From: Parcubacteria group bacterium
GTDB taxonomy: Bacteria; Patescibacteriota; Minisyncoccia; JACPHC01
Assembly: GCA_016188775.1 (NCBI GenBank)
Contig: JACPHC010000004.1
Coordinates: forward strand, 12,704 to 76,703
Length of the DNA: 64,000 bases
Direction: 5' to 3'
Shown here: piece by piece, positions 1,021-63,312 of the stretch
Layout of the letters: every line of letters begins with the position of its first letter
How positions within the stretch are numbered: the first letter of the stretch is position 1
The notes under the pieces: generated by a model
The model's input: only the letters and a program-made list of their open reading frames with translations
What the model was told of the DNA's origin: nothing
The model's database searches: none
Program-made: the position numbers and the translations under genes

Positions 1021-4000
1021 TTACGGCGTGTAGCTGTAAGTCAATATGATTTTAGCGTTAAGAAGATAGACTGTTGAACCAGTGGCCGTGGGAGAGACGT
1101 GAAGCGTGTATTCTTTGGTGGTGTTGGAAACGCCATTTAAGTCAGTCACGGTTTCGCAAGCGTTGCAGGCTTGAGGAGAAGCGGTGAAAACACTGGTGGC
1201 GTCGTAGAGCAGTTTGAAAGGCAGAGCCGAGGCTGGAGAAGAGAAAGTGAACTGGGCTCCCGGATAAGCTCCATAGCCGGTCGCGCCAAGATTGCCTCTT
1301 TTTAATTTAAGATCCATAGTCTGATTGGTTCCGCCTTGGGTGGTGCCGTTGATTTCAATGGCCGCGGATTTAATTTGAATATTATTTTCCGGAATGCGAA
1401 TTCGGAATTTTTTGGTAATGGCCGGAGTGGCAATGGGAGTGGCAATGGGAGAGGTGGGATTCTTTTCCTGGAAGATAAAGAATTCAACTGTTTTGGAAGG
1501 ACTGGTAGTTCCAGTGGTCAAGGAACAGAAAGGAGTGGCTGAAGGATTGAGGGCCGGACCGTTGTTGGCGCTGTCTTTGGCTGAAACTCTGAAAAAGTAT
1601 TGAGTGGAAGCGGTCAGATTTAAAAGATTAATGGTTTTAGTAAGACCAGCCTCGTTTTCAGGAATGGAAAGCATTGATGAAAGAGCATTGGGAGTGGTTA
1701 AAGAGGAATCAGTATCATACTCAATTTGGGCCGAGATTGGATAAGAATTAGCCAGATCAGAGGCGTTGAATGAAATGTTGGCTGTGGAAGCGGTAACTCC
1801 GCTATAAGCGGTGCCGCAACTGCCGCCATTTAAATTGACAACAGGCGGAGTGGTATCAACCATAAAATCAGCCGATGTTTCAGGATTGCCGCCAAATGAA
1901 ACCCAATTGGAAAGAGTGTTATTGGTCCCGCCGACAGTATCGGACCTGACTCGGGCTTGCCAGTGATAGGAGGTGCCGGAGACAAGACCGGAAACCGTCA
2001 CTTGGCCGGTGGCTGTTCCGGTTGTCCAGAGAACTCCGGTTCCTTCAACAATACCTGTTCCGTCAAAAGCTTGAGCAATGGGTTTAACTTCCACTTGAGG
2101 ATAATAGGTTTGATTGGTTTTGCCTCCGGCCATAGACATTTTGAAAATAACCGAGGATTCATTAGTGGACCCAGCAGTGGTAATGGCGGTGGAGCCGTCA
2201 GTTCGGTACTGATTAAGAGCGGTCGGGTCAATTGGTTTAGCGTCCAGAACAGTGAAAGGAGAATAACTGCCTGAACCAACTGAATTAGAAGCCACGACTG
2301 TCCAATTGCCTAAAAGTTTGTCAGTCAAATCAAAACCGCAGCCGGTCATTGAAGTGGAGCTGGCAAAAGCGCAAGCCGGGGAACTTAAAATATCGGTTTG
2401 ACTGGTCGTAGCCAATTTAACCAAAGTGTCAGCGGTGAAATTAGCGCCAGTGATAGAGACGCTGGAGATTGTTCCGTTATCAAAACCGGAAGAAGGAGAA
2501 ACGGAAGTGACAACCGGGGCAGTGGCTCGGACTTCAAAGCCGGTAGTTGAACCGTCTCCGAATTCTCCGATTTGGGTGTCTTGATTAGTCACTCGAGCTT
2601 TATAAAAACCGAGGGAAGCCGCGTTTAAATTAAAAGTGCCGGTAATGGAAGTGTAAGCGGTATTTATAGTTACGCTCGCGCCGGGGATGGCGAGAACGCC
2701 GGAACAATTATCGGTTAAACATTTAACGTATTTTAAATCATTCGTTGCCAATACTCCATTATTCGTTTCTTTATAAGCAATTTTTGCCAATCCGTCCGTG
2801 GAATCTAAAACTAAAGAAGCGAAACTGCCGGTAAAAGCATCAGTATCGCATCCTGAAAGAGTACAACCCGTATCGCCATCAAGAGTTTTTACAACTCCCG
2901 CGGAACAATTGGCGTCATTGCATCGAGCAAATCTCAATGATGATTCAGTCGAATATTTATAATAAGCAATCGCGGGATATTGATTTGAATCTAAAATCAA
3001 AGAAGGAGTATCATTAGGGCTTAAAATAGCCGTGCTTGTAGTGCAGCCGGATAAAACGCATCCGGCAATACCGTCAAGATTTACAACCGTTGCTCCGGTG
3101 CAGGCTGTGTTTGGACAACGAATATATCTAAGAGGATTGATTGAAACAATTCTGGCAAGATTATCAGAACCTAAAGCCATTGATGAATTATTTGATGAAC
3201 TGATGTCCGTAGAAACTCCGACCGCGCAATTGGCGTCAGAGCAACTGATAAATCTATTATCGAAAACAACTCTTCCAAAATCGTCTGCCGGATTTAAGGC
3301 AAGCGATATAGAATTAGCATTATAGCCAGCTCCGCAGCCGGTTAACGCGCAGCCTGTTCCGCTAATTGGCGTAATAATTCCTGAAGCGCAATTAATATCG
3401 GCGCATTTGGCATACTTAACCTGAGAAGTGGCGGGGTCTCCGTAAACAATCCTGGGAAATCCATCAGATCCAACGGCTATGGATGTAAACCGCCCCGAAT
3501 CTCCAGTGGCGCAATTAGTTAAAACACATCCGGTGTTGCCGTCAAGAAGATTCATTACGCCGGTTGAGCAATCTAAATCAGCGCAGCGAATAAATTTAAG
3601 ATCTAAATTTGAATCTTGATAAGCAATTCTGGCAAAACCGTCGGCGGAACCTATGGCAATCGAAGGATAACTGCCCGCCGCTGTTAACGTGCTGCATCCC
3701 GTAATTTTACAATTGGATCCGCCGTCAAGAGTCCTAATAATTCCGGCGCTGCAATTACTATTAGCGCAGCGAATATATTTAAGAAAACCAGCGCCACTAG
3801 CGGGACTATCGTTTTGATAAACTATTCTTGAAAATCCGTCTTGGCCTAAAATATTTTTAATATAGCTCCCCTGATTATTAGCAGTAAAGATTTCAACTGC
3901 GTTCCTAACAACGCTAACGCAATCTATGTCAACGCAACGAATATAATTCAAGTGTGGCGAAGATCCTATTGGATTAACTACAAACACAACTCTTAAAAAA

Positions 4001-6711
4001 TTACCAGAACCAAACGCAAGCTCCGCAACGCTCATAGGATTAGAGGCGTAAGTTAGAACGCCGCCAGAAATATTACCGGTAAATACTCCGGCGGAGCAAT
4101 CTTCGGCTGAACAATGAAAATATTTTAAAGGAAAAGGAGAAGCGTTGGCTAGACGATAAACAATTCTGGCAAAACCGTCGTCGGAACCTTTAATGCCGCG
4201 TATATTGGTTATGCTTAAAGCGCCGGTGTCGCATCCCGTTATAACGCAAGAAGGTCCATCAACCACTGTTATAGCGCCAGTCGAGCAATTTAAATCCGAA
4301 CATTTAGCGTATCTAAGATTAGAATTGGTAGAATCCAGATAGCTTATTCGGGCAAACCCATCATTGGCAATAAAAATAGAATTATATACTCCCGGGTCGC
4401 TCGTTGTACTGCAGCCGATTAAACCGCAGCCAGTCTCGCCGTCTATTTTTTGAACAAGACCGCTAGCGCAATCTAGATGAGTGCAGTTGATATATCTCAA
4501 TCCTGTTTCTCCTCCTCCCGTTGTAAAAATAATTTTTCCAAAATCATTTGAAGCAAGAGCAAATGACGGATTTCCCGCGCCATTCCCGGTGGAAACACTG
4601 CAGTCAGTTAACACGCACCCCGACCCCGCGACACTTGTTATAACGCCTGAAGAGCAACCAATATCAAAACAACGACTAAAATTAATGCTGCTAGAGCCAG
4701 TCCTTCTATTATGAACAATTCTGGCAAAACCGTCGGAACCTTTAATTATAGAGGTGAAACTTGTGCCATTTGCGCCATTTGTTGCGCAATTGGTTAAGAC
4801 GCAACCCGTAACGCCATCAAGAATGGCAACTGTGCCGGTTGAGCAATCTAAATCAGCGCAATGAGCATATTTTAAAATTCCAGATGTATAGGATGTATAA
4901 CTAATCATTGCAAATCCATTATTATCAAGAGTTATGGAATTGTAATGGCCTGTATTTTCAGCGGTATTGCAGCCGGTTAAAACGCAACCCGTTCCGCCAT
5001 CTAAAAGAGCGGCGGTATAGTCAGTGCAGTCTATATTTTTACATCTGACATATTTAAGATCGCCATTGGTGTCATCTCTATAACTTATTCGGGCAAATCC
5101 ATCAGTGGCAAATATTGTAAGCGATGGCGTCGCTAATATTTTACCGCTACCACTATTTTCACAGTCAGTTAATAAACAGCCGGTATTTCCATCTAAAAGA
5201 TTAACCGTACCTTCGGCGATCGTCTTCCTCAACTCCATCTTGGGCTTATTATTAACCATATCATCCGTGTCAATTCCGGCGCCGTTAAAAGTAATAGATT
5301 TGGCCGTTTCATTGTTAATTCCAAAAGTCGGAGCCACGCTGGTGACAGTTGGAGCGAAAATGGTAAAAGAACGGGTATTGGAAGTACCAGTGATTGGAGT
5401 GGAACGGGAAACAGAAATGGTTCCGGTGATGTTGGTTGATCCTTCCTGTCCCGGCACTCGGACGGCGATACAAGTATTAGTGTAAGCCGAGCCAGCGCAT
5501 TTGGTTGAGCCGGTAATTTGGGTGGCGGCTGAAGCGTTAATGGTAATAGCCCCAGCGGTTCCAAAATGATCTCCATTTAAAGCAATGACTTTGCCGATTT
5601 GATCATCCGGAGTCGTGTCTATTTGACCCGGACCTTCGATTGTTCCGGCATCATCAGCAATAGAGCAAAGACGGGGCAGAATCGTGAAAGCGAAATTAGA
5701 TGATTGGCCGGAAACAGTGACTGTGATGTTTCCGGAAATTCCGGCGTCAGAGGGAATCGCGGTGGTTATAGCCGCGTCAGTCCAATTAGTGGTTGGAGAA
5801 ACAACGATATTAGCGGAGCCATTGATGGTTAAAGTTGAAGCGTCTTGAGTGGCGCCGAAACCAGCGCCGTTGATTGAGATAGTGTCTGATTGTCTGGCTG
5901 AAGCAATACCGCTAGCAATGGATGAACCAGTCGGACAAGTAGTTTCGGCTCCAGCCTCGGTCAAGTCAACTGTTGTAATAGCCGGTCCGACGGAAAAATC
6001 CGGCGTTGTCATTTTCGTCCGGTCAGCGTCAGCCAGTTCCGAGCCTTCAACAATAAAATTGAGAGTTCGGCCGGAACTTACAACAGTGTTATGATCCCAA
6101 ACTTCAAGATAAAGATATTCGTTGGCTAAAGTAAAAGGGCCGACGGAAGAAGAGGCGGTGTTGATGGTGGAGGCGCCTCCGGTCCACCAATCAACGGCGG
6201 TCGGATCATGAGAGAAAAGAAGAACCGCTCCGGTTAAAGAAGTGTCCTGGGGAACTCGAAAAACCTGGAAGGCCGGATGAGAGGTGACGTTGGCTCTGTT
6301 GTCGGTTTTTCTGACATTGAAAGTCCAGGTTCCGGCGGCGAAAGTGCCGGACATTTGGGCGTTGGAAAACCAGCCGTAGGGTTGAGGCGTGGCTCCCGGA
6401 GTGCCGGTGGTAGTGCTTGTAACTCCCGGCCTGATAACGGTTTGGACAGCGGAAGCCGGAGAAGTAATAGCTGATGTGGTGTTTGAAGCTTGATCCGGAA
6501 CAGTTCCGTCTCTCATTATCCAAGTTCCGGCCATTCCGGAAACTTCCTGATGAAGATAAAAAGTTTTGACAGCGGCGTTAGCTGAATTTTTCTCAACGCT
6601 CACCTGCGGCGGGTTTTTGGATAAATCCAAAAAGACATCATAGGGAACCGCTGTCCCTAAAATGGATAAAGATAAAATTACGACCAGAGATAGTTTTTTA
6701 AAATAGTTCAT
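1021..6711 (-). CDS. giant secreted surface protein (1896 aa) with about 14 Cys-rich ~60-aa repeats, FN3-like and IPT/TIG-like domains
   Basis: N-terminal signal-like peptide MNYFKKLSLVVILSLSILGTA. Repeats of pattern LDGxTGCVLTxC...DGFARIxY...LKYxxCxDxDCSxG. FN3-like stretches (TSYHWQARVRS, TQYFFRVSAKDS). IPT/TIG-like (PVVTSVSPSSGFDNGTISSVSITGANF). Confidence 0.8.
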   Translation of the reverse strand: MNYFKKLSLVVILSLSILGTAVPYDVFLDLSKNPPQVSVEKNSANAAVKTFYLHQEVSGMAGTWIMRDGTVPDQASNTTSAITSPASAVQTVIRPGVTSTTTGTPGATPQPYGWFSNAQMSGTFAAGTWTFNVRKTDNRANVTSHPAFQVFRVPQDTSLTGAVLLFSHDPTAVDWWTGGASTINTASSSVGPFTLANEYLYLEVWDHNTVVSSGRTLNFIVEGSELADADRTKMTTPDFSVGPAITTVDLTEAGAETTCPTGSSIASGIASARQSDTISINGAGFGATQDASTLTINGSANIVVSPTTNWTDAAITTAIPSDAGISGNITVTVSGQSSNFAFTILPRLCSIADDAGTIEGPGQIDTTPDDQIGKVIALNGDHFGTAGAITINASAATQITGSTKCAGSAYTNTCIAVRVPGQEGSTNITGTISVSRSTPITGTSNTRSFTIFAPTVTSVAPTFGINNETAKSITFNGAGIDTDDMVNNKPKMELRKTIAEGTVNLLDGNTGCLLTDCENSGSGKILATPSLTIFATDGFARISYRDDTNGDLKYVRCKNIDCTDYTAALLDGGTGCVLTGCNTAENTGHYNSITLDNNGFAMISYTSYTSGILKYAHCADLDCSTGTVAILDGVTGCVLTNCATNGANGTSFTSIIKGSDGFARIVHNRRTGSSSINFSRCFDIGCSSGVITSVAGSGCVLTDCSVSTGNGAGNPSFALASNDFGKIIFTTGGGETGLRYINCTHLDCASGLVQKIDGETGCGLIGCSTTSDPGVYNSIFIANDGFARISYLDSTNSNLRYAKCSDLNCSTGAITVVDGPSCVITGCDTGALSITNIRGIKGSDDGFARIVYRLANASPFPLKYFHCSAEDCSAGVFTGNISGGVLTYASNPMSVAELAFGSGNFLRVVFVVNPIGSSPHLNYIRCVDIDCVSVVRNAVEIFTANNQGSYIKNILGQDGFSRIVYQNDSPASGAGFLKYIRCANSNCSAGIIRTLDGGSNCKITGCSTLTAAGSYPSIAIGSADGFARIAYQDSNLDLKFIRCADLDCSTGVMNLLDGNTGCVLTNCATGDSGRFTSIAVGSDGFPRIVYGDPATSQVKYAKCADINCASGIITPISGTGCALTGCGAGYNANSISLALNPADDFGRVVFDNRFISCSDANCAVGVSTDISSSNNSSMALGSDNLARIVSINPLRYIRCPNTACTGATVVNLDGIAGCVLSGCTTSTAILSPNDTPSLILDSNQYPAIAYYKYSTESSLRFARCNDANCSAGVVKTLDGDTGCTLSGCDTDAFTGSFASLVLDSTDGLAKIAYKETNNGVLATNDLKYVKCLTDNCSGVLAIPGASVTINTAYTSITGTFNLNAASLGFYKARVTNQDTQIGEFGDGSTTGFEVRATAPVVTSVSPSSGFDNGTISSVSITGANFTADTLVKLATTSQTDILSSPACAFASSTSMTGCGFDLTDKLLGNWTVVASNSVGSGSYSPFTVLDAKPIDPTALNQYRTDGSTAITTAGSTNESSVIFKMSMAGGKTNQTYYPQVEVKPIAQAFDGTGIVEGTGVLWTTGTATGQVTVSGLVSGTSYHWQARVRSDTVGGTNNTLSNWVSFGGNPETSADFMVDTTPPVVNLNGGSCGTAYSGVTASTANISFNASDLANSYPISAQIEYDTDSSLTTPNALSSMLSIPENEAGLTKTINLLNLTASTQYFFRVSAKDSANNGPALNPSATPFCSLTTGTTSPSKTVEFFIFQEKNPTSPIATPIATPAITKKFRIRIPENNIQIKSAAIEINGTTQGGTNQTMDLKLKRGNLGATGYGAYPGAQFTFSSPASALPFKLLYDATSVFTASPQACNACETVTDLNGVSNTTKEYTLHVSPTATGSTVYLLNAKIILTYSYTP

Positions 6712-6807
6712 ATTTTCTAAATTTAGATTTAAAATTTAAGAATCAATCGACCTCATTCTTAAATCATAAATCTTTTTAATTAATAATTATTTTTTCGACT
6801 TTTTTTA

Positions 6808-6841
6808 CCCGCCAAAATTTTTTTATAAAAATTTTGGCGGG
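6808..6841. promoter_or_regulatory. palindromic hairpin/operator-like site CCCGCCAAAATTTTT-TTAT-AAAAATTTTGGCGGG
   Basis: Perfect 15-bp arms. A near-identical site is at 15882-15913 and a half-site at 16021-16034. Confidence 0.4.
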
Positions 6842-6845
6842 TGAA

Positions 6846-8424: not shown

Positions 8425-8601
8425 TAGAACTTATGCAAAATATTTTTTTCGTAGCGAAAATTTAATGTTTTGAGCGAAGCGAAGCGAAAATTTCGCAGGA
8501 ATATACAAAGCATATTTCAAGAAATTTCCGCAAAGCCGCAGCCAAAACAATAAATTTGTAGTAGAAAAAGTATTTCGCATAAGGCCTGTAAATTCCAACC
8601 G

Positions 8602-8625
8602 CCTGTTTTAAGAACAGGTTTTTTT
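8602..8625 (+). terminator. putative intrinsic terminator (CCTGTT-TTAAG-AACAGG followed by T7)
   Basis: 6-bp stem plus a T-run on the plus strand, with no annotated plus-strand gene upstream. It may end an unannotated small RNA. Confidence 0.3.
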
Positions 8626-8665
8626 AAAGCTAAAAAAATTATACCATAGATTTCGCCTGTCCAGT

Positions 8666-8676
8666 TGTGGATAACT
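8666..8676. promoter_or_regulatory. TGTGGATAACT 11-mer (contains a perfect DnaA-box complement TGTGGATAA)
   Basis: Exact 11-mer also at 15711-15721 and 15868-15878. Confidence 0.4.
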
Positions 8677-8740
8677 AAATTGAGCTAATTTTAGCGTTAT
8701 TTACTAATTTCTATCTATAATTTCTATCTATTTAAAGAAT

Positions 8741-8784
8741 AAACTTACATATTTACGGACGATCGTCCGTAAATATGTAAGTTT
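8741..8784. promoter_or_regulatory. perfect 44-bp palindrome centred on CGATCG (AAACTTACATATTTACGGACGATCGTCCGTAAATATGTAAGTTT)
   Basis: Reverse-complement identity checked by eye. Shares the core TTACGGACGATCGTCCGTAA with 40198-40243. Confidence 0.7.
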
Positions 8785-8794
8785 AATAAATTTT

Positions 8795-9355
8795 TTATTG
8801 AAGATGAAATCTATTTTTTAAATCCAAATCGATGTCTGTTTCTTTAACAATTAAAAATCTTGCATAAGCTCTCAAATTAAAAAATTCAATCACGAAATCA
8901 ATTTCATTTTTGCATTCATAAGGATAAATAAAAACGCTTTTTTGCAAAGGATAAAAACCTAATTGTTTTAATTGAAAAGTTAAAGCATTTCTTTCGCGTC
9001 TTAAACGTTCGGGAATATCAAAAATTACCACTCTCCATAATTTATCCCAATGGGGTGGTTTTTTAATTCGCATTGTTTTTAAATTATATCGCAAAAATTC
9101 TTTTTTGCCTTCTCTGTTTAAAACTAAACTAACTGTTCCGTCTTTATTTTCTTGATAATTAATTAATTTTGACCGATAAAGACGATGAATAGATTCTCTC
9201 AGACTACGATAATTAATTTTCTGCCATTCTTTGATAGCGGATTTTAAAATTCGAAAATAAGAATCTGGTCTGCGCGTTAAAGATAAAGCAACTCCCGTGC
9301 CTAACAAAATAATAATTTTTCTAGCCACCGGTCCCAATCTTTTTTTATTTGACAT
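8795..9355 (-). CDS. winged-helix plus Cas2-fold domain protein (PaaX-like putative regulator)
   Basis: The C-terminal segment VVIFDIPERLRRERNALTFQLKQLGFYPLQKSVFIYP resembles the Cas2/PaaX-C core. There is no cas1 and no repeat array nearby. Confidence 0.5.
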   Translation of the reverse strand: MSNKKRLGPVARKIIILLGTGVALSLTRRPDSYFRILKSAIKEWQKINYRSLRESIHRLYRSKLINYQENKDGTVSLVLNREGKKEFLRYNLKTMRIKKPPHWDKLWRVVIFDIPERLRRERNALTFQLKQLGFYPLQKSVFIYPYECKNEIDFVIEFFNLRAYARFLIVKETDIDLDLKNRFHLQ

Positions 9356-9407
9356 AAGTATTTAAATTTTTATTTAGATTTAATTTAAAATAAATAAAAT
9401 GCTTTGT

Positions 9408-9521
9408 TATTTCAATGATATTTCAATATTTTTAAAATTTTTAAATTTACATGTTTATTTACGATCGTCCGTAAATATGTAAATTTTAAAAATAATATTG
9501 AATATTGAAATGGAATGGAAA
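9408..9521. repeat. long imperfect inverted repeat (~55-bp arms) centred on ACGATCGTCCGTAAATATGTAAATTT
   Basis: Left arm tttcaatgatatttcaatattttt...acgatcg pairs with right arm cgatcg...aataatattgaatattgaaatgg. Confidence 0.6.
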
Positions 9522-9560
9522 ATGAAAAATGGAAAATGAAAAATGAAGAAATAATATAAA

Positions 9561-15867: not shown

Positions 15868-15878
15868 TGTGGATAACT
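15868..15878. promoter_or_regulatory. TGTGGATAACT 11-mer (DnaA-box-like)
   Basis: Exact copy. Followed by the CCCGCC...GGCGGG hairpin at 15882-15913. Confidence 0.4.
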
Positions 15879-15881
15879 TTG

Positions 15882-15913
15882 CCCGCCAAAATTTTAGTTA
15901 AAATTTAGGCGGG
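15882..15913. promoter_or_regulatory. palindromic hairpin/operator-like site CCCGCCAAAATTTT-AGTT-AAAATTTAGGCGGG
   Basis: One mismatch versus 6808-6841. The half-site AAAATTTAGGCGGG repeats at 16021-16034, abutting the ATG. Confidence 0.4.
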
Positions 15914-16037
15914 TAAAAAAATAATAAATCGCATACCGGTTGCGCAAATAATCTTAAACGCGTATAATACCGCATAATCAAGAAGTGATTCCTTCTTATT
16001 TAAACAGTCGAAAAATAATTAAAATTTAGGCGGGTAA

Positions 16038-20417: not shown

Positions 20418-20438
20418 CTAAAAATTTTTAGGATACTT
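20418..20438 (-). promoter_or_regulatory. promoter-like motif CTAAAAATTTTTAGGATACTT, ~25 bp upstream of the 18382-20394 gene
   Basis: Exact match to the motif family. Confidence 0.35.
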
Positions 20439-20440
20439 TT

Positions 20441-20490
20441 TTTATTTATTTCCAATATACTGGTATACCAGTATATTGGAAATAAATAAA
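20441..20490. repeat. perfect 50-bp palindrome (TTTATTTATTTCCAATATACTGGTA | TACCAGTATATTGGAAATAAATAAA) directly after the pilin gene stop
   Basis: Perfect reverse-complement symmetry read directly. Candidate long hairpin terminator or attenuator. Confidence 0.7.
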
Positions 20491-20491
20491 A

Positions 20492-20959
20492 TTATTGAAC
20501 TTCAATAACCCCGGATTTATAAATTGTCATTGTTTTGGAAAGTCCGGTTTGAGTGTTTTGGATAATCAAAGTATTTTGGCCCGAAGAGAAAGATTCGACT
20601 TCTCCGATTAATTTAGTGAAAATAATTTGCGACGATGGAAAGGTTACGCTGGAAAACGTATAACCCGAAGAAAGAGTGGAAACAAAATTAGTTCCCGCGC
20701 CGGCCGAATACGGCGCCTGAAATAGAGTGAAAGAAGTCGAGTCAAAAAAAACGCCGAATTTGGCGGCTGTGGAACCGGATTCGGCAAAGCCGGTCATTGA
20801 TTTGACCCGGGCTTCAAAAAACGTGTTTTTAATTTGAGCGACCGCGGCCGAAAGTTCCGTGTCAATAATGGGTTTGACCGCGTTTAAACTTATCAAGGCG
20901 GCCAAAATCGCGAAAATCGCGACGCTGATGGAAATTTCAATGAGAGTAAAGCCCCGCAT
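20492..20959 (-). CDS. type IV pilin-like protein
   Basis: MRG|FTLIEISISVAIFAILAALISL. Confidence 0.7.
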   Translation of the reverse strand: MRGFTLIEISISVAIFAILAALISLNAVKPIIDTELSAAVAQIKNTFFEARVKSMTGFAESGSTAAKFGVFFDSTSFTLFQAPYSAGAGTNFVSTLSSGYTFSSVTFPSSQIIFTKLIGEVESFSSGQNTLIIQNTQTGLSKTMTIYKSGVIEVQ

Positions 20960-31270: not shown

Positions 31271-31323
31271 ACTAATCAATAATCCAAATAAATATACTTT
31301 TACAAAGTATATTTATTTGGATT

Positions 31324-38772: not shown

Positions 38773-40200
38773 ATGAAATTTCCAAAATTAAAATTACTTC
38801 CGACATTTATCATCGCTTCAGGAACGATTTTTTTGCTTTTGACTATTATCATTATTCAGATAGCCGAACCGCTTCTTAAAAATAATTTTCTGGAAGAAAT
38901 AGGACAAAACACGGTCGTTTTTGTCAACCGACTGGCTAACACCGTTCTTGTCCAAAAAAATTTTGAAGATTACGGCTCAGAGGAATCTCAAAAAAATTTC
39001 CGCGAATTCAGGCGCGCGCTAGTCGTGCCGAATTTAGCCAGATTAAAAATCTGGAATCCCGAGGGCGTGATTATTTTTTCCGACGAGTCCAGACTACAAG
39101 GGAAAAAGTTCGCCAACTCATTCGCTCTCGAAGCTTTGGATCTTTCAGTCAAAAATAAACTCATCAATACTCTGGAACTGGCGATCGAAACGAACGAATA
39201 CGCTTTTGACAAAGGCATCGGCCAAGTCTTTGATATGGCCGTGCCGATTACTTTCGGCCTCTCCAGAAAACCAATCGGCATTGTCGAGGTTTTTATCCGC
39301 ACCGGCCCATTGGAAACAAGAATCGCCGATTTTAGGTTTGCGCTGGCGACCAGAATATTTATCGCCACGACTCTTTTTTTCATAATTTTAACCGGCATTA
39401 TTGTCCGGGCTTCAAAAACAATCCGCGATCAGCAAAACGAGCTTAATAAATACGCCAGGGAGCTTGAAGAAAAAGTGCTGGAACGGACAAAAAACCTTGA
39501 AGAATCTCATCGAAAAGAAAATATGCTCAAAGATCAGTTTGTTTTCATTATTTCCCACGAATTATCAACGCCGGTAACCGCGATATCTTGGAATATCAGC
39601 TCTTTGAAAAAAAGCAAAACATTGGAATCTTTGAGTCCAGACGCTCAAGAAATGTTTGATAATTTGGAAAAAAACACAATGACGCTATGGAGAATAATCA
39701 GAAATATTGTCCAAATTCACCGCGGCGAACTGGGCAAAATCCAAATATCCAAATCTGAATTTGATATTCACGCTCTTGCCAAAGAAATAATTAAAAACAA
39801 TCAAGCCTTTGCCCAACTGAAAAAAGTAAAACTTGCCTACGAGGACGAGGGCGAGCCTTTAACGATCAAATCCGATCCGGAAAGAATCAAAGAAGTTTTA
39901 AACAATTTAATATCAAACGCGATACAATTTAACGGCCAGGGAGGCAAAGTCAACGTGAAAATGAATAAAAATGATTCTGAAATCGTCTTTAACGTCGAGG
40001 ACACCGGAATAGGAATAAGCGAAGAAGAAAAGCCGAAGGTTTTTGAAAAATTCTGGCGATCCGAAGACGCGGCTAAAATCGAAGGCTCCGGCCTCGGTTT
40101 ATTTATATCTAAATTTATCGTCGAAACGATGGGCGGAAAAATTTGGTTTGAATCTAAAAAAGCCATTGGCTCGACTTTTTCTTTTTCTTTGCCCATTTAA
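38773..40200 (+). CDS. sensor histidine kinase
   Basis: H-box FVFIISHELSTPVTAI. ATPase boxes DTGIGISEEE and GSGLGLFISKFIVETMGGKIWFES. Confidence 0.85.
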   Translation: MKFPKLKLLPTFIIASGTIFLLLTIIIIQIAEPLLKNNFLEEIGQNTVVFVNRLANTVLVQKNFEDYGSEESQKNFREFRRALVVPNLARLKIWNPEGVIIFSDESRLQGKKFANSFALEALDLSVKNKLINTLELAIETNEYAFDKGIGQVFDMAVPITFGLSRKPIGIVEVFIRTGPLETRIADFRFALATRIFIATTLFFIILTGIIVRASKTIRDQQNELNKYARELEEKVLERTKNLEESHRKENMLKDQFVFIISHELSTPVTAISWNISSLKKSKTLESLSPDAQEMFDNLEKNTMTLWRIIRNIVQIHRGELGKIQISKSEFDIHALAKEIIKNNQAFAQLKKVKLAYEDEGEPLTIKSDPERIKEVLNNLISNAIQFNGQGGKVNVKMNKNDSEIVFNVEDTGIGISEEEKPKVFEKFWRSEDAAKIEGSGLGLFISKFIVETMGGKIWFESKKAIGSTFSFSLPI

Positions 40201-40243
40201 ATTTACACCTTTACGGACGATCGTCCGTAAAGGTGTAAATTTA
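40198..40243. promoter_or_regulatory. perfect 46-bp palindrome centred on CGATCG (TAAATTTACACCTTTACGGACGATCGTCCGTAAAGGTGTAAATTTA) between convergent genes
   Basis: Shares the 20-bp core TTACGGACGATCGTCCGTAA with 8741-8784. Overlaps the kinase stop codon. Confidence 0.7.
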
Positions 40244-40355
40244 GAAATCTTCTATTTTCATAGACTCCAACACTCTTATCCGTTCCTCAATCGGCGGATG
40301 GGTCACCCCGTACAAATGCTTCGCGTTATACGGAGCGAAACTCAAATAAATTAAT

Positions 40356-41279
40356 TTATACGCTAAATTCGCGTAAGGCCCGTATCCTCTCCTCAATCGG
40401 CGGATGGGTCATAAAAAGTTTAATAAACCAAGACGTTCCCGCTTTATCAAATTTTTGTCCGCTTCGCAAAGGATTATCAAAATAAATATGAGAAATAGCG
40501 GCATTGACCCTTAAGGGAGTTTGATTGGTTGATATCTTTTTAAGAGCCGAAACAAGTCCTTCCGGATAACGTGTTAAAAGAACGCCTGAAGCGTCAGCTA
40601 AAAATTCCCGTTTTCGCGAAATGGCCAGCCGAATCAAAGTCGCGGCAATAGGCGCTAAAATTGCCGCCGCGATTCCTAAAATGATAAGCAGCCCCTGAAA
40701 TTGATTCCCCTCCCTTTCGTTATTTCTGCTCCGGAAGCCGCCCCACAATAAAGACCGCATAAAAAAATCCGAAACCAGAGAAATAACGCCGACTAAAACC
40801 ACTGCCATGGAATTAATCAGCATGTCGCGATTGCCGATATGCGAAAGTTCGTGCGCGATTACGCCTTCCAATTCAACTTTATTTAATTTTTCCAAAAGAC
40901 CTCGGGTCGCCGCCACGACGGCGTGTTTGGGATCGCGGCCCGTGGCAAAAGCGTTCATTGCTTCCTCTTCAATAATATAAATCTTCGGCATGGGCAAGCC
41001 GGCGGTAATCGTTAAATTCTCCACGACGTTATATAATTCGGGAAAATCTTTTTTTTCAACCGGCTTGGCTTTGGCCAATGACAAAACCAATTTATCCGAC
41101 CACCAATAAGAACTGAAACTCATAAAAAAACTGATAAAAACCGCGAAATATAAAATTCCCGGACTCCGATAAATTTGGGAAAAAAACCAGCCGATTCCAA
41201 TGACAAAAAACAAAAAGACTGTCAGAAGCAGCCAAGTTTTTTGGATATTTTCCGTCTGTTGGGTATAAATAGTCGCCAT
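40356..41279 (-). CDS. htpX: HtpX-like M48 zinc metalloprotease
   Basis: HELSHIGNRD (HExxH) with N-terminal TM helices. Confidence 0.85.
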   Translation of the reverse strand: MATIYTQQTENIQKTWLLLTVFLFFVIGIGWFFSQIYRSPGILYFAVFISFFMSFSSYWWSDKLVLSLAKAKPVEKKDFPELYNVVENLTITAGLPMPKIYIIEEEAMNAFATGRDPKHAVVAATRGLLEKLNKVELEGVIAHELSHIGNRDMLINSMAVVLVGVISLVSDFFMRSLLWGGFRSRNNEREGNQFQGLLIILGIAAAILAPIAATLIRLAISRKREFLADASGVLLTRYPEGLVSALKKISTNQTPLRVNAAISHIYFDNPLRSGQKFDKAGTSWFIKLFMTHPPIEERIRALREFSV

Positions 41280-62337: not shown

Positions 62338-63159
62338 TTAAAATCTGATATATTTATTCCAATATTCATAAAGCTCTTTAGTGGCGCGAAGATCGCCGAC
62401 ATTATAACGGGCGATATCCAAAAATTTTTTCTCTTGGAAAAGTCGGCCGATATCGTCGCCGGTCACGCCGGAAGTTTTCGGACTTTTAATGCCAAAAAAC
62501 CGGCTCCAAAGATGAAGATTCCCCTTTTTTCTAACCGCGCCGTAAAAAGAGAGCTGATCCAATAAATCAACATGTGAGGCGCCGAATTTTTGAAGAGATA
62601 AATAACGATTGGACATCAAATCTTTGGACGGCCGAATTTTGTGCAGAGCGGATCTGGCCATTAAAAACGGGACATCGAATCCCCGGCCGTTAAAACTGAT
62701 AAATTCCTGATATTGGACAATGCCCCGCCAAAAATTTTCCAGCATTTCTTTTTCCGTCACTGGTTTAAATTTAATCCCGTCTTCTTCGAATTCTTTTATT
62801 TCTTCTCCGGAAGTTTGTCCCATACCAGAACTTCGTTCGGTACGGGACTGCGCCGATTTCTCTTTAAACGCGATGCCCTCTTTTCCATTTGAAATTAATT
62901 CTTTTACAAGTTCTTGATTCGGGGCTTGAAAATAAACCGTTCCCTGATTTTTTTCGTAATCCAAAACGCCAATGGCGACAATCTCTCCGGTCAACGGAGA
63001 AAAACCCAAGCCGTTTTTTAAATCCGCCAGGGCTGTTTCATATTCTTCTTCATTATAGGCCTCCTTTTTAATCCAGCGCGTCAGAACTTCTTGAGTCGAT
63101 TTGTCAAAAGCGTCAAAATCCGCGCCGATCGTTTCAATATCAAAAATAAGTTTACTCAT
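62338..63159 (-). CDS. RNase H-like 3-prime-5-prime exonuclease domain protein (YprB/PolB-exo-like)
   Basis: LIFDIETIG (exo I), FNGRGFDVPFL (exo II), YNVGDLRAT (exo III-like). Confidence 0.6.
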   Translation of the reverse strand: MSKLIFDIETIGADFDAFDKSTQEVLTRWIKKEAYNEEEYETALADLKNGLGFSPLTGEIVAIGVLDYEKNQGTVYFQAPNQELVKELISNGKEGIAFKEKSAQSRTERSSGMGQTSGEEIKEFEEDGIKFKPVTEKEMLENFWRGIVQYQEFISFNGRGFDVPFLMARSALHKIRPSKDLMSNRYLSLQKFGASHVDLLDQLSFYGAVRKKGNLHLWSRFFGIKSPKTSGVTGDDIGRLFQEKKFLDIARYNVGDLRATKELYEYWNKYIRF

Positions 63160-63217
63160 AATTTTATTATATTATATCAATTAATAAAAAATAACAAAAC
63201 TATTTATATTTTCTTTT

Positions 63218-63259
63218 ATTTTACATATTTTCAAACGATCGTTTGAAAATATGTAAAAT
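63218..63259. promoter_or_regulatory. perfect 42-bp palindrome centred on CGATCG (ATTTTACATATTTTCAAACGATCGTTTGAAAATATGTAAAAT)
   Basis: Reverse-complement identity verified. Arms share TTACATATTT with 8741-8784. Confidence 0.7.
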
Positions 63260-63312
63260 TTAAAATTTTATAATCTTTCTAATGATTGTTAAAAAATGTT
63301 AAATTAATTTTA

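Follow-up and report, generated by a model that had tools for sequence, protein, structure and literature searches.

Patescibacteria, or Candidate Phyla Radiation (CPR) bacteria, have very small genomes and few recognizable regulators. Here, we describe a small PaaX-like gene from a Parcubacteria metagenome-assembled genome (MAG) that is bracketed by two copies of a long palindrome, an arrangement that recurs at most homologous loci. The gene was found in a 64,000-nucleotide stretch of DNA (GenBank assembly GCA_016188775.1, contig JACPHC010000004.1, positions 12,704 to 76,703 of the forward strand), which is here called the window and supplies all window coordinates given below. It occupies positions 8795 to 9355 of the minus strand (stop codon at 8795-8797), is present as a single copy in the 64-kb window, and encodes a protein of 186 amino acids (aa) that corresponds exactly to NCBI entry HYV52_01420. 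The gene is embedded in a cluster of type IV pilus genes and shares its strand with those for PilB (T2SSE), PilC (T2SSF), and a prepilin-type pilin.

The downstream repeat (8740-8785) is a perfect 46-bp palindrome of two 23-nt arms, TAAACTTACATATTTACGGACGA and TCGTCCGTAAATATGTAAGTTTA, centered on CGATCG at 8760-8765 and separated by 9 nt from the stop codon of the gene. The original prediction, made from the letters of the DNA, had described a 44-bp palindrome 11 bp after the stop and was essentially right. Folded as single-stranded DNA, this palindrome reaches -19.9 kcal/mol (z = -9.1 versus shuffles). The upstream repeat (9442-9487) is a degenerate copy, centered on CGATCG at 9462-9467 and located 87 nt 5' of the ATG; the stretch from 9442 to 9493 is a direct repeat of 8740-8791, with 85% identity over 52 nt. 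Read on the gene strand, its gene-proximal arm has been damaged by a small deletion/insertion and its gene-distal arm is intact. The upstream copy is nested in a weaker inverted repeat (9410-9521), as had also been predicted. The upstream structure (9405-9526) folds with z = -5.3 to -5.4, a significance that is only modest because the outer part is AT-rich.

When up to 3 mismatches are allowed, the 22-mer core TTTACGGACGATCGTCCGTAAA occurs three times in the window versus 0 times in 100 shuffles, and the CGATCG hexamer alone is not enriched there (17 observed versus 23.6 expected). An exact search of metagenome contigs for the palindrome core gave no match; for the window PilC, one relative was found at 75% identity on a 1.8-kb contig, and no other was above 50%. 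Just outside the palindromes are short tandem duplications, of 2 × 13 bp on the downstream side (8705-8730) and 2 × 14 bp on the upstream side (9514-9543).

The repeat bracket across homologous loci

We compared 160 loci, 80 from species-representative genomes and 80 independent ones from metagenome contigs. Palindromes were counted if they had a C-NNNN-G core of the CGATCG, CTATAG, CGATAG, or CCATGG type, and those within 200 nt of the gene ends were classed as near. The genome loci contained 87 core palindromes near the gene (32 kb) versus 9 in the remaining 583 kb, and the metagenome loci contained 71 near the gene (29 kb) versus 6 in 322 kb. Core palindromes are therefore concentrated more than 100-fold at the gene ends in both sets. 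A second test made no use of symmetry: for each gene, the upstream and downstream flanks of 200 nt were compared with each other, with upstream-downstream pairs from different loci as the control. Of 130 testable loci, 105 (81%) have a repeat common to both flanks that scores above the 99th percentile of these mismatched pairs, and in 100 of the 105 it includes the core. The bracket is near-universal: whether homologs elsewhere are also flanked by such palindromes had been left by the original prediction as a point to check, and most of them are.

Could these palindromes be generic intergenic elements, such as terminators or elements like repetitive extragenic palindromic (REP) sequences, that happen to lie beside the gene? 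The window does hold other palindrome families, as well as two copies of this palindrome far from the gene. However, the concentration at gene ends in two independent 80-locus sets and the locus-specific sequence common to both flanks exclude a coincidence, and we give this explanation next to no credence.

The sites share a common anatomy. Counting outward from the center, each half-site has T and then C/A at positions 1 and 2 (first set), an invariant G at position 3, and a moderately conserved W-A-W-A at positions 8 to 11. Positions 12 to 16 carry no sequence information, yet they are symmetric in 91 to 98% of cases versus ~28% expected, and symmetry stops at about position 21. Between the invariant C...G pair, nonpalindromic 4-nt centers (GATA, TATC, GGTC) are tolerated. 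Within a locus, the two copies have near-identical arms; between paralogues of one genome, the arms differ.

Where the repeats are asymmetric, their relative orientation is direct at 52 loci, inverted at 20, and indistinguishable at 30. A Hin/hix-like invertible segment was considered and rejected, given this predominance and the failure of a first-set pattern (GATA upstream, TATC downstream) to replicate in the second set. An origin of the two copies as crossover hybrids (attL/attR type) was likewise rejected, as the expected pattern of alike outer and alike inner arms was seen at just 10 of 213 variable positions.

Several loci carry additional copies. One has two tandem repeat copies on each side, at 179 to 85 nt before the ATG and 20 to 115 nt after the stop (L026); another has three upstream copies (L125), and two have two downstream copies each (L001 and L013). 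Integron-like arrays (L125, L136) were considered and discarded; the open reading frames (ORFs) enclosed by the palindromes encode ordinary secreted proteins and follow no pattern. At two loci (L039, 2757-2856; L063, 3787-3886), the assembly has a 100-N scaffold gap ~100 nt 5' of the gene, and metagenome contigs with the gene (many of L081-L160) are often just 1 to 2 kb long. Long palindromes probably break short-read assemblies.

The protein and its family

Residues 101-171 of the protein match the Pfam model PaaX_M (PF20803) with an E value of 1.7e-20 and 73.3 bits against a cut-off of 24, and all 81 of 81 diverse family members match this model. Cas2 models align below threshold: Pfam Cas2 (PF09827) scores 18.9 bits against 23.8 on the same stretch as PaaX_M, TIGR01573 scores 21.3 bits against 24.5, and the padloc library returned weak Cas2 matches only. 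TIGR02277 (PaaX) aligns to residues 46-167 with 26 bits against a cut-off of 264. In the Pfam search of the 186-aa protein, no PaaX N-terminal or C-terminal (PaaX_C) model was matched, and the protein ends after the Cas2-like domain.

An AlphaFold2 (AF2) model built from an 81-sequence alignment has a mean predicted local distance difference test (pLDDT) score of 84, with values of at least 95 over residues 100-186 and far lower values in part of the N-terminal half. Its best Foldseek matches are Cas2 structures, found with a probability of 1.0 (3exc, 5zyf, and 2ivy; TM-score normalized to target, 0.6 to 0.68). Foldseek also finds Escherichia coli PaaX (8A39), which was the top match for a first, poorer model. 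A profile alignment made with hhalign sets the family pattern INxRxLxExIxxLYxSKLI against FGERFVRTALFRLNKEGWL, the recognition helix and wing of E. coli PaaX, and reveals a shared WDxxW motif. The N-terminal half gave weak, scattered, sub-threshold matches to winged-helix families (TFIIE_alpha, HxlR, HTH_27, and others). Given the split in pLDDT, the Foldseek matches, and these sub-threshold N-terminal matches, we consider the Cas2 fold of the C-terminal domain (about residues 100-186) secure and a winged-helix N-terminal half (about residues 8-95) likely but unproven. Of the predicted combination of a winged-helix-like N terminus with a Cas2-like C terminus, the second part is confirmed by PaaX_M, AF2, and Foldseek and the first is only moderately supported; the protein models as a Cas2-fold, PaaX-like protein and not as an unrelated fold.

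When the alignment is anchored at WDxxW, the family reads VVIFDIPE...QKSVF, the Cas2 signature, where E. coli PaaX has LLLLSEGLD...APSLM. Residues G83, W103, D104, F112, D113, P115, R122, Q138, S140, P145, and C148 are invariant over the 81 diverse members. All of these except G83 are in the Cas2-like domain, and the N-terminal half is conserved mainly at hydrophobic positions.

PaaX is a dimeric, phenylacetyl-CoA-responsive repressor that binds palindromic operators. Like PaaX (TIGR02277; PDB 8A39), the family protein has a winged-helix-type N-terminal part, the WDxxW motif, and then the Cas2-fold domain that is central in PaaX (PaaX_M). It differs in having 186 rather than 316 aa, in lacking PaaX_C and a match to the PaaX N-terminal Pfam model, in keeping the Cas2 motifs FDIPE and QKSVF that E. 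coli PaaX has lost, and in having sites of ~42 bp on both sides of its gene. Furthermore, the window gene has pilus neighbors and no paa genes near it, and no neighbor gene is conserved across the 81 loci examined. With Cas2 and VapD, the family protein shares the fold and signature residues, including the Asp of beta1. Unlike Cas2, it scores below threshold on Cas2 models and has an extra N-terminal half of DNA-binding type; unlike VapD, it has no VapX-type partner gene. The lack of cas1 and of an array, as originally predicted, holds within the limits of the tests: neither a CRISPR-like array nor regularly spaced repeats were found in the window, and no cas1-like neighbor is conserved across loci, no cas1 model having been run over the whole window.

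At 50% identity, the family comprises 300 clusters with E < 1e-30 and 2,378 with E < 1e-10. Lengths are uniform, nearly all 180 to 200 aa, and the family appears to be confined to Patescibacteria, mainly to Parcubacteria lineages. The protein is among the slowest-evolving at these loci, keeping 60 to 70% identity versus ~45% for PilC. Genomes hold one to three paralogues, each with its own repeat class, and 11 sampled genomes have two or three copies. Database labels for members are "hypothetical," "PaaX," or "Cas2"; four (P0450, P0453, P0473, and P0506) are named "CRISPR-associated endonuclease Cas2" by NCBI, and at the P0473 loci there is no cas1 within ~4 kb. The Cas2 naming is probably a systematic misannotation in Patescibacteria, and such labels would inflate CRISPR counts in CPR genomes. 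A full-text literature search found no description of the family or of its repeat-gene-repeat module, and in the literature searched this architecture of a PaaX/Cas2-fold protein is previously unreported.

Predicted promoter overlap and possible roles in regulation and repeat processing

The distance from the center of the upstream copy to the ATG has a sharp mode at 39 to 40 nt. For the promoter test, sites were chosen by core and outer-arm symmetry only. The trinucleotide TTG is present at positions +5 to +7 in the proximal arm of 28 of 92 upstream copies versus the distal arm of 3 of 92; for downstream copies, the counts are 10 of 103 in one arm and 3 of 103 in the other. A -10-like hexamer starts at +26 to +30 in 25 of the 28 TTG-bearing upstream copies. 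Overall, such a hexamer (at least 5 of 6 positions) was found in 31 of 67 upstream copies versus 58 of 235 controls. At several loci, only 6 to 7 nt separate its end from the ATG. In three examples (L006, L081, and L086), TTGATA or TTGAAT is followed by 17 nt, TATACT or TATAAT, 7 nt, and the ATG. As judged from sequence, this layout is that of a predicted sigma-70-type promoter that gives a leaderless mRNA and has its -35 box inside the palindrome. With a -35-like TTG in the proximal arm and a -10-like hexamer at 17 ± 2 nt, the repeat would overlap the predicted promoter of the gene in ~30% of upstream copies.

At the other end of the gene, the downstream copy begins 0 to 40 nt past the stop in most loci. 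This placement invites an explanation at the RNA level, in which the palindromes are hairpins that terminate or stabilize the transcript and the Cas2/VapD-like domain is an RNase acting on them. The long perfect stems, the tetraloop-like centers, the few canonical terminators nearby, and the RNases among Cas2 and VapD relatives (structural neighbors of the protein) would fit, and the downstream palindrome of the window passes a simple terminator-like scan on both strands. However, no T-tract or T enrichment follows the downstream copies, whose 20-bp stems are AT-rich, and in the TTG-bearing and leaderless loci the upstream copy lies 5' of the -10 box and so outside the gene's transcript. Three loci (L115, L117, and L121) have a separate G+C-rich terminator hairpin after the downstream repeat. 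Nor does anything point to RNA wobble pairing, because G.T mismatches are not in excess over A.C mismatches (24 versus 29 in upstream copies and 25 versus 24 in downstream copies), a spectrum without G.U tolerance. We regard the RNA-level explanation as quite improbable. A count of canonical terminators after the downstream copy (5 of 81 and 1 of 68, versus 29 of 1,103 random windows) was set aside, as these are too rare in the genomes concerned to inform.

The interpretation we favor, tentatively and with a probability of roughly 45%, is that the family protein is a self-regulating, dimeric DNA-binding protein of PaaX type with two flanking operators. Among models that draw on the known properties of the fold, it is the simplest, and its strongest support comes from the predicted promoter overlap. 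The N-terminal winged-helix part would read DNA, and the Cas2-fold domain would form the dimer, like the homologous central domain of PaaX. Such a dimer would recognize a dyad site of ~42 bp composed of the invariant core C-(G/T)AT(C/A)-G, an A/T-rich box at positions 8 to 11, and locus-specific outer arms. One copy would lie within the predicted promoter of the gene or immediately 5' of it. In the many relatives with a -35 box in the proximal arm and a predicted leaderless mRNA, a palindrome-bound protein would cover -13 to about -60, and the gene would repress itself because the bound protein would block RNA polymerase. The second copy, after the stop, may serve as a second binding site that closes a ~0.7-kb loop or otherwise insulates the unit, and the few solo copies found elsewhere would probably be bound by the same protein too.

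A comparable architecture exists in the Lrp/AsnC regulators, which combine a winged helix with a ferredoxin-like beta-alpha-beta-beta-alpha-beta domain that dimerizes and can bind an effector, and which are autoregulated through multiple sites. The likeness is one of general knowledge, its sole trace here being a weak Foldseek match to 4pcq. No sequence relationship was detected, and the ferredoxin-like domain of the family is of Cas2 type. By analogy with the ferredoxin-like RAM domain of these regulators, the polar residues that are invariant could make up a pocket for an effector. Alternatively, they could contact the C-GATC-G core, with variable winged helices reading the variable arms.

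A number of observations weigh against the autoregulator model. In the N-terminal half, which would have to read the DNA, the AF2 pLDDT falls to 54 to 64 over residues 50-95 and no helix-turn-helix family scored above threshold. Every invariant polar residue lies instead within the Cas2-like domain, including D113, the Asp at the Cas2 catalytic position, and the model leaves this invariant Cas2 signature unexplained. A plain operator model also does not explain why the downstream copy is kept in more than 80% of loci or why direct orientation predominates. Arm positions 12 to 18 are unrelated between loci below ~70% protein identity. Among 50 two-copy loci, differences between copies are mirrored in both arms 70 times versus 92 single changes, which operators do not account for. 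Several solo copies are found where the ends of two genes converge, a setting in which a promoter would not be expected. Finally, at the window locus itself, the palindrome center is 109 nt from the ATG, and consensus promoter matches are found downstream of the palindrome. The candidate promoter there (9387-9415, minus strand; TTGAAA, 17 nt, TATTTT) falls in the gap between the upstream repeat and the start codon. Situated in very AT-rich sequence, it matches the consensus and no more, and its assignment is weak because the scan gave 8 promoter-like sites versus 7.0 expected in shuffles. The original prediction had offered operators as one of two possibilities; the promoter-like elements at fixed positions in upstream copies speak for it, and the placement of the predicted promoter at the window locus speaks against it.

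The other possibility was that gene and palindromes form a small mobile or selfish cassette. The G+C content of the gene follows that of its flanks and host (r = 0.80, slope 0.86, 113 loci) with a constant offset of -6.6 points; low G+C is therefore a property of the gene and not a sign of transfer, and the idea that the window cassette, being low in G+C, had been acquired horizontally in recent times was rejected. In 24 of 24 contigs read, one exact protein (P0052) has an MFS gene on one side and rplT-rpmI-infC on the other, and another (P0473) has the same upstream neighbors in all 24 contigs read. Variation downstream of the latter begins at a tRNA 3' end, with serine-recombinase islands, away from the palindrome. 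In loci L162-L166, a long-arm tRNA gene (~4700-4790) located ~150 nt downstream of the PaaX-like gene is the point of strain divergence, and beyond it are varying islands with large serine recombinases and an IS110 transposase. A role of the palindrome as the attB site of these recombinases was discarded, as the islands start at the tRNA 3' end ~150 nt away. Paralogues in one genome share at most ~80% DNA identity. No relative was detected in viral contigs, there were no PHROG matches, and plasmids yielded only distant PaaX-family matches from Rhodococcus (26% identity); with only weak Cas2 matches from padloc, a viral, plasmid, or defense-system origin was rejected.

An active mobile element is thus argued against, as the gene's G+C tracks that of the host and its position is identical across strains. 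What remains of the cassette proposal is slower. It draws on the absence of any neighbor gene conserved across loci and on the presence of solo copies in intergenic DNA. In some lineages, the orientation or position of the gene is altered relative to shared neighbors, and blocks of ~720 to 800 bp with 84 to 89% identity are bounded exactly by the outer palindrome edges (L115 versus L121 and L117, L125 versus L130, and L130 versus L136), in contexts that are unrelated on at least one side. Over longer times, the unit may therefore show slow, recombination-type cassette behavior.

These blocks are among the evidence for a different reading, in which the unit is a domesticated or slowly selfish repeat-processing module, by analogy with REP sequences and their REP-associated tyrosine transposases (RAYTs) or with IS200, and the Cas2 site is catalytic. 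The winged helix would target hairpin or cruciform repeats, and the Cas2-like domain, with its two Asp residues on the dimer axis, would nick or recombine at the GATC center. Recombination between the flanking copies, or with a solo copy, could excise, reinsert, or homogenize the unit, and solo copies would be scars or targets. Such a module would make sense of the Cas2 signature (F-D-I/V-P, R, Q-x-S-V-F), which is invariant in 81 members and lost in E. coli PaaX, and of arms conserved in the manner of a structure, with symmetry but no sequence information at positions 12 to 16 and with 70 compensated double changes. The hairpin-loop-like tolerance of nonpalindromic 4-nt centers, the mostly direct asymmetric repeats, the compact unit of ~0.7 to 0.8 kb, the one to three paralogues per genome with a repeat class each, and the solo copies between convergent genes would also be expected of it.

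However, we know of no transposase or recombinase with a Cas2 fold, there are no target-site duplications, and paralogues within a genome are at least 20% diverged in DNA, unlike the copies of an active insertion sequence (IS). The constant context of each exact protein, the G+C ameliorated to that of the host, and the empty viral and PHROG searches, with only the distant Rhodococcus PaaX on plasmids, also count against a processing module. Some of the supporting evidence has other explanations: mirrored changes can come from template-switch correction of quasipalindromes without any function, palindrome-to-palindrome homology could simply reflect how far a conserved functional unit extends in genomes that rearrange, and the invariant polar residues could be the effector pocket considered above. 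On balance, we think that a module of this kind is doubtful, although it is the chief competitor of the autoregulator model.

The comparison with known repeat systems is similarly divided. As in REP/RAYT systems, a low-copy, vertically inherited gene is flanked by its own class of hairpin-capable palindromic repeats, with paralogue-specific repeat classes, intergenic solo copies (some between convergent genes), and compensated stem changes. In contrast, the family protein has no HUH/Y1 fold by Pfam or Foldseek, and its solo copies number ~1 per 30 to 50 kb rather than the hundreds of REPs. REPs flank RAYT genes in inverted orientation, and in this the family, with its mostly direct repeats, also differs. 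IS200 elements resemble the unit in being ~0.7 to 0.8 kb long and in having a single small gene with hairpins close to both ends that frequently point the same way, the upstream one abutting the promoter. The family has no HUH transposase, no identical within-genome copies, and stable positions across strains, which are differences from IS200.

It would be a further step to propose a new site-specific DNA-processing enzyme, that is, a Cas2-fold nuclease steered by its winged helix to hairpin or cruciform repeats, which it would nick or recombine at their GATC center and thereby maintain, excise, or reinsert the ~0.7-kb unit, as a Cas2-based counterpart of REP/RAYT or IS200; we judge this unlikely. 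Such an enzyme could be a relative of the stand-alone ancestor that gave CRISPR systems their Cas2, the repeat-gene-repeat order being formally like repeat-spacer-repeat. If the Cas2 active site is used, the family would consist of stand-alone Cas2 homologues, each with a cognate DNA repeat, and would bear on the origin of Cas2. If the protein is instead a regulator, as in the autoregulator model that we prefer, it is probably among the main site-specific DNA-binding proteins of Parcubacteria. Either way, the conserved cis-architecture turns an unannotated or misannotated "Cas2" or "hypothetical" gene into a testable system with defined candidate sites and a predicted leaderless promoter.

Solo copies and other features of the window

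A palindrome scan of the whole window found two solo copies of the repeat in 64 kb, and other loci gave 14 relaxed matches in 719 kb. Solo copies are intergenic, with 4 of 13 between convergent gene ends, and those close to a family gene match the arms of that gene. The first solo copy in the window (40198-40243; folding z = -9.6) has the same core, TTTACGGACGATCGTCCGTAAA, with an arm change of AT to CC that is mirrored as AT to GG. It is flanked by a histidine kinase gene and a gene for an M48 (HtpX-like) peptidase, whose 3' ends converge on it. The second (63214-63263; z = -7.0) has compensated inner-arm changes, ACGG to TCAA, mirrored, and its center is 79 nt upstream of the start of a gene for a PolB-exo-like/RNase H-fold protein (62338-63159, minus strand).

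The first solo palindrome supplies stop codons on both sides. The TAA stop of the histidine kinase gene (40198-40200) comes from it, as does the stop at 40241-40243 that closes an M48/HtpX relic 3' end with the reading ...THPPIEERIRVLESMKIEDF*. The M48/HtpX gene now ends at 40356, past a duplicated or inserted segment of ~106 bp that is marked by a direct repeat (40277-40305 and 40383-40411).

A second, unrelated palindrome family of the form TTTxCCCGCCAAAATTTT...AAAATTTxGGCGGGTxAA is present at 6804-6845 and 15878-15917, and its members are probably bidirectional terminators. In addition, there is a near-perfect 58-bp palindrome at 20437-20494, with the center GGTATACC, and a perfect 43-nt hairpin with a 3-nt loop at 31281-31323.

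Between the cassette and the next pilus gene is an AT-rich spacer of 315 nt (8425-8740). It contains a terminator-like hairpin on the plus strand (8601-8619), which no plus-strand ORF precedes, and an extended -10 match, TGGTATAAT, on the minus strand (8646-8638). The spacer may hold a small RNA or a long 5' untranslated region, although an Rfam search gave no match. Downstream of the pilus genes, positions 1021 to 6711 encode a secreted protein of 1,896 aa with many Cys-containing repeats of the type D/N-x-x-C-x-x-G...F(A/G)RI.

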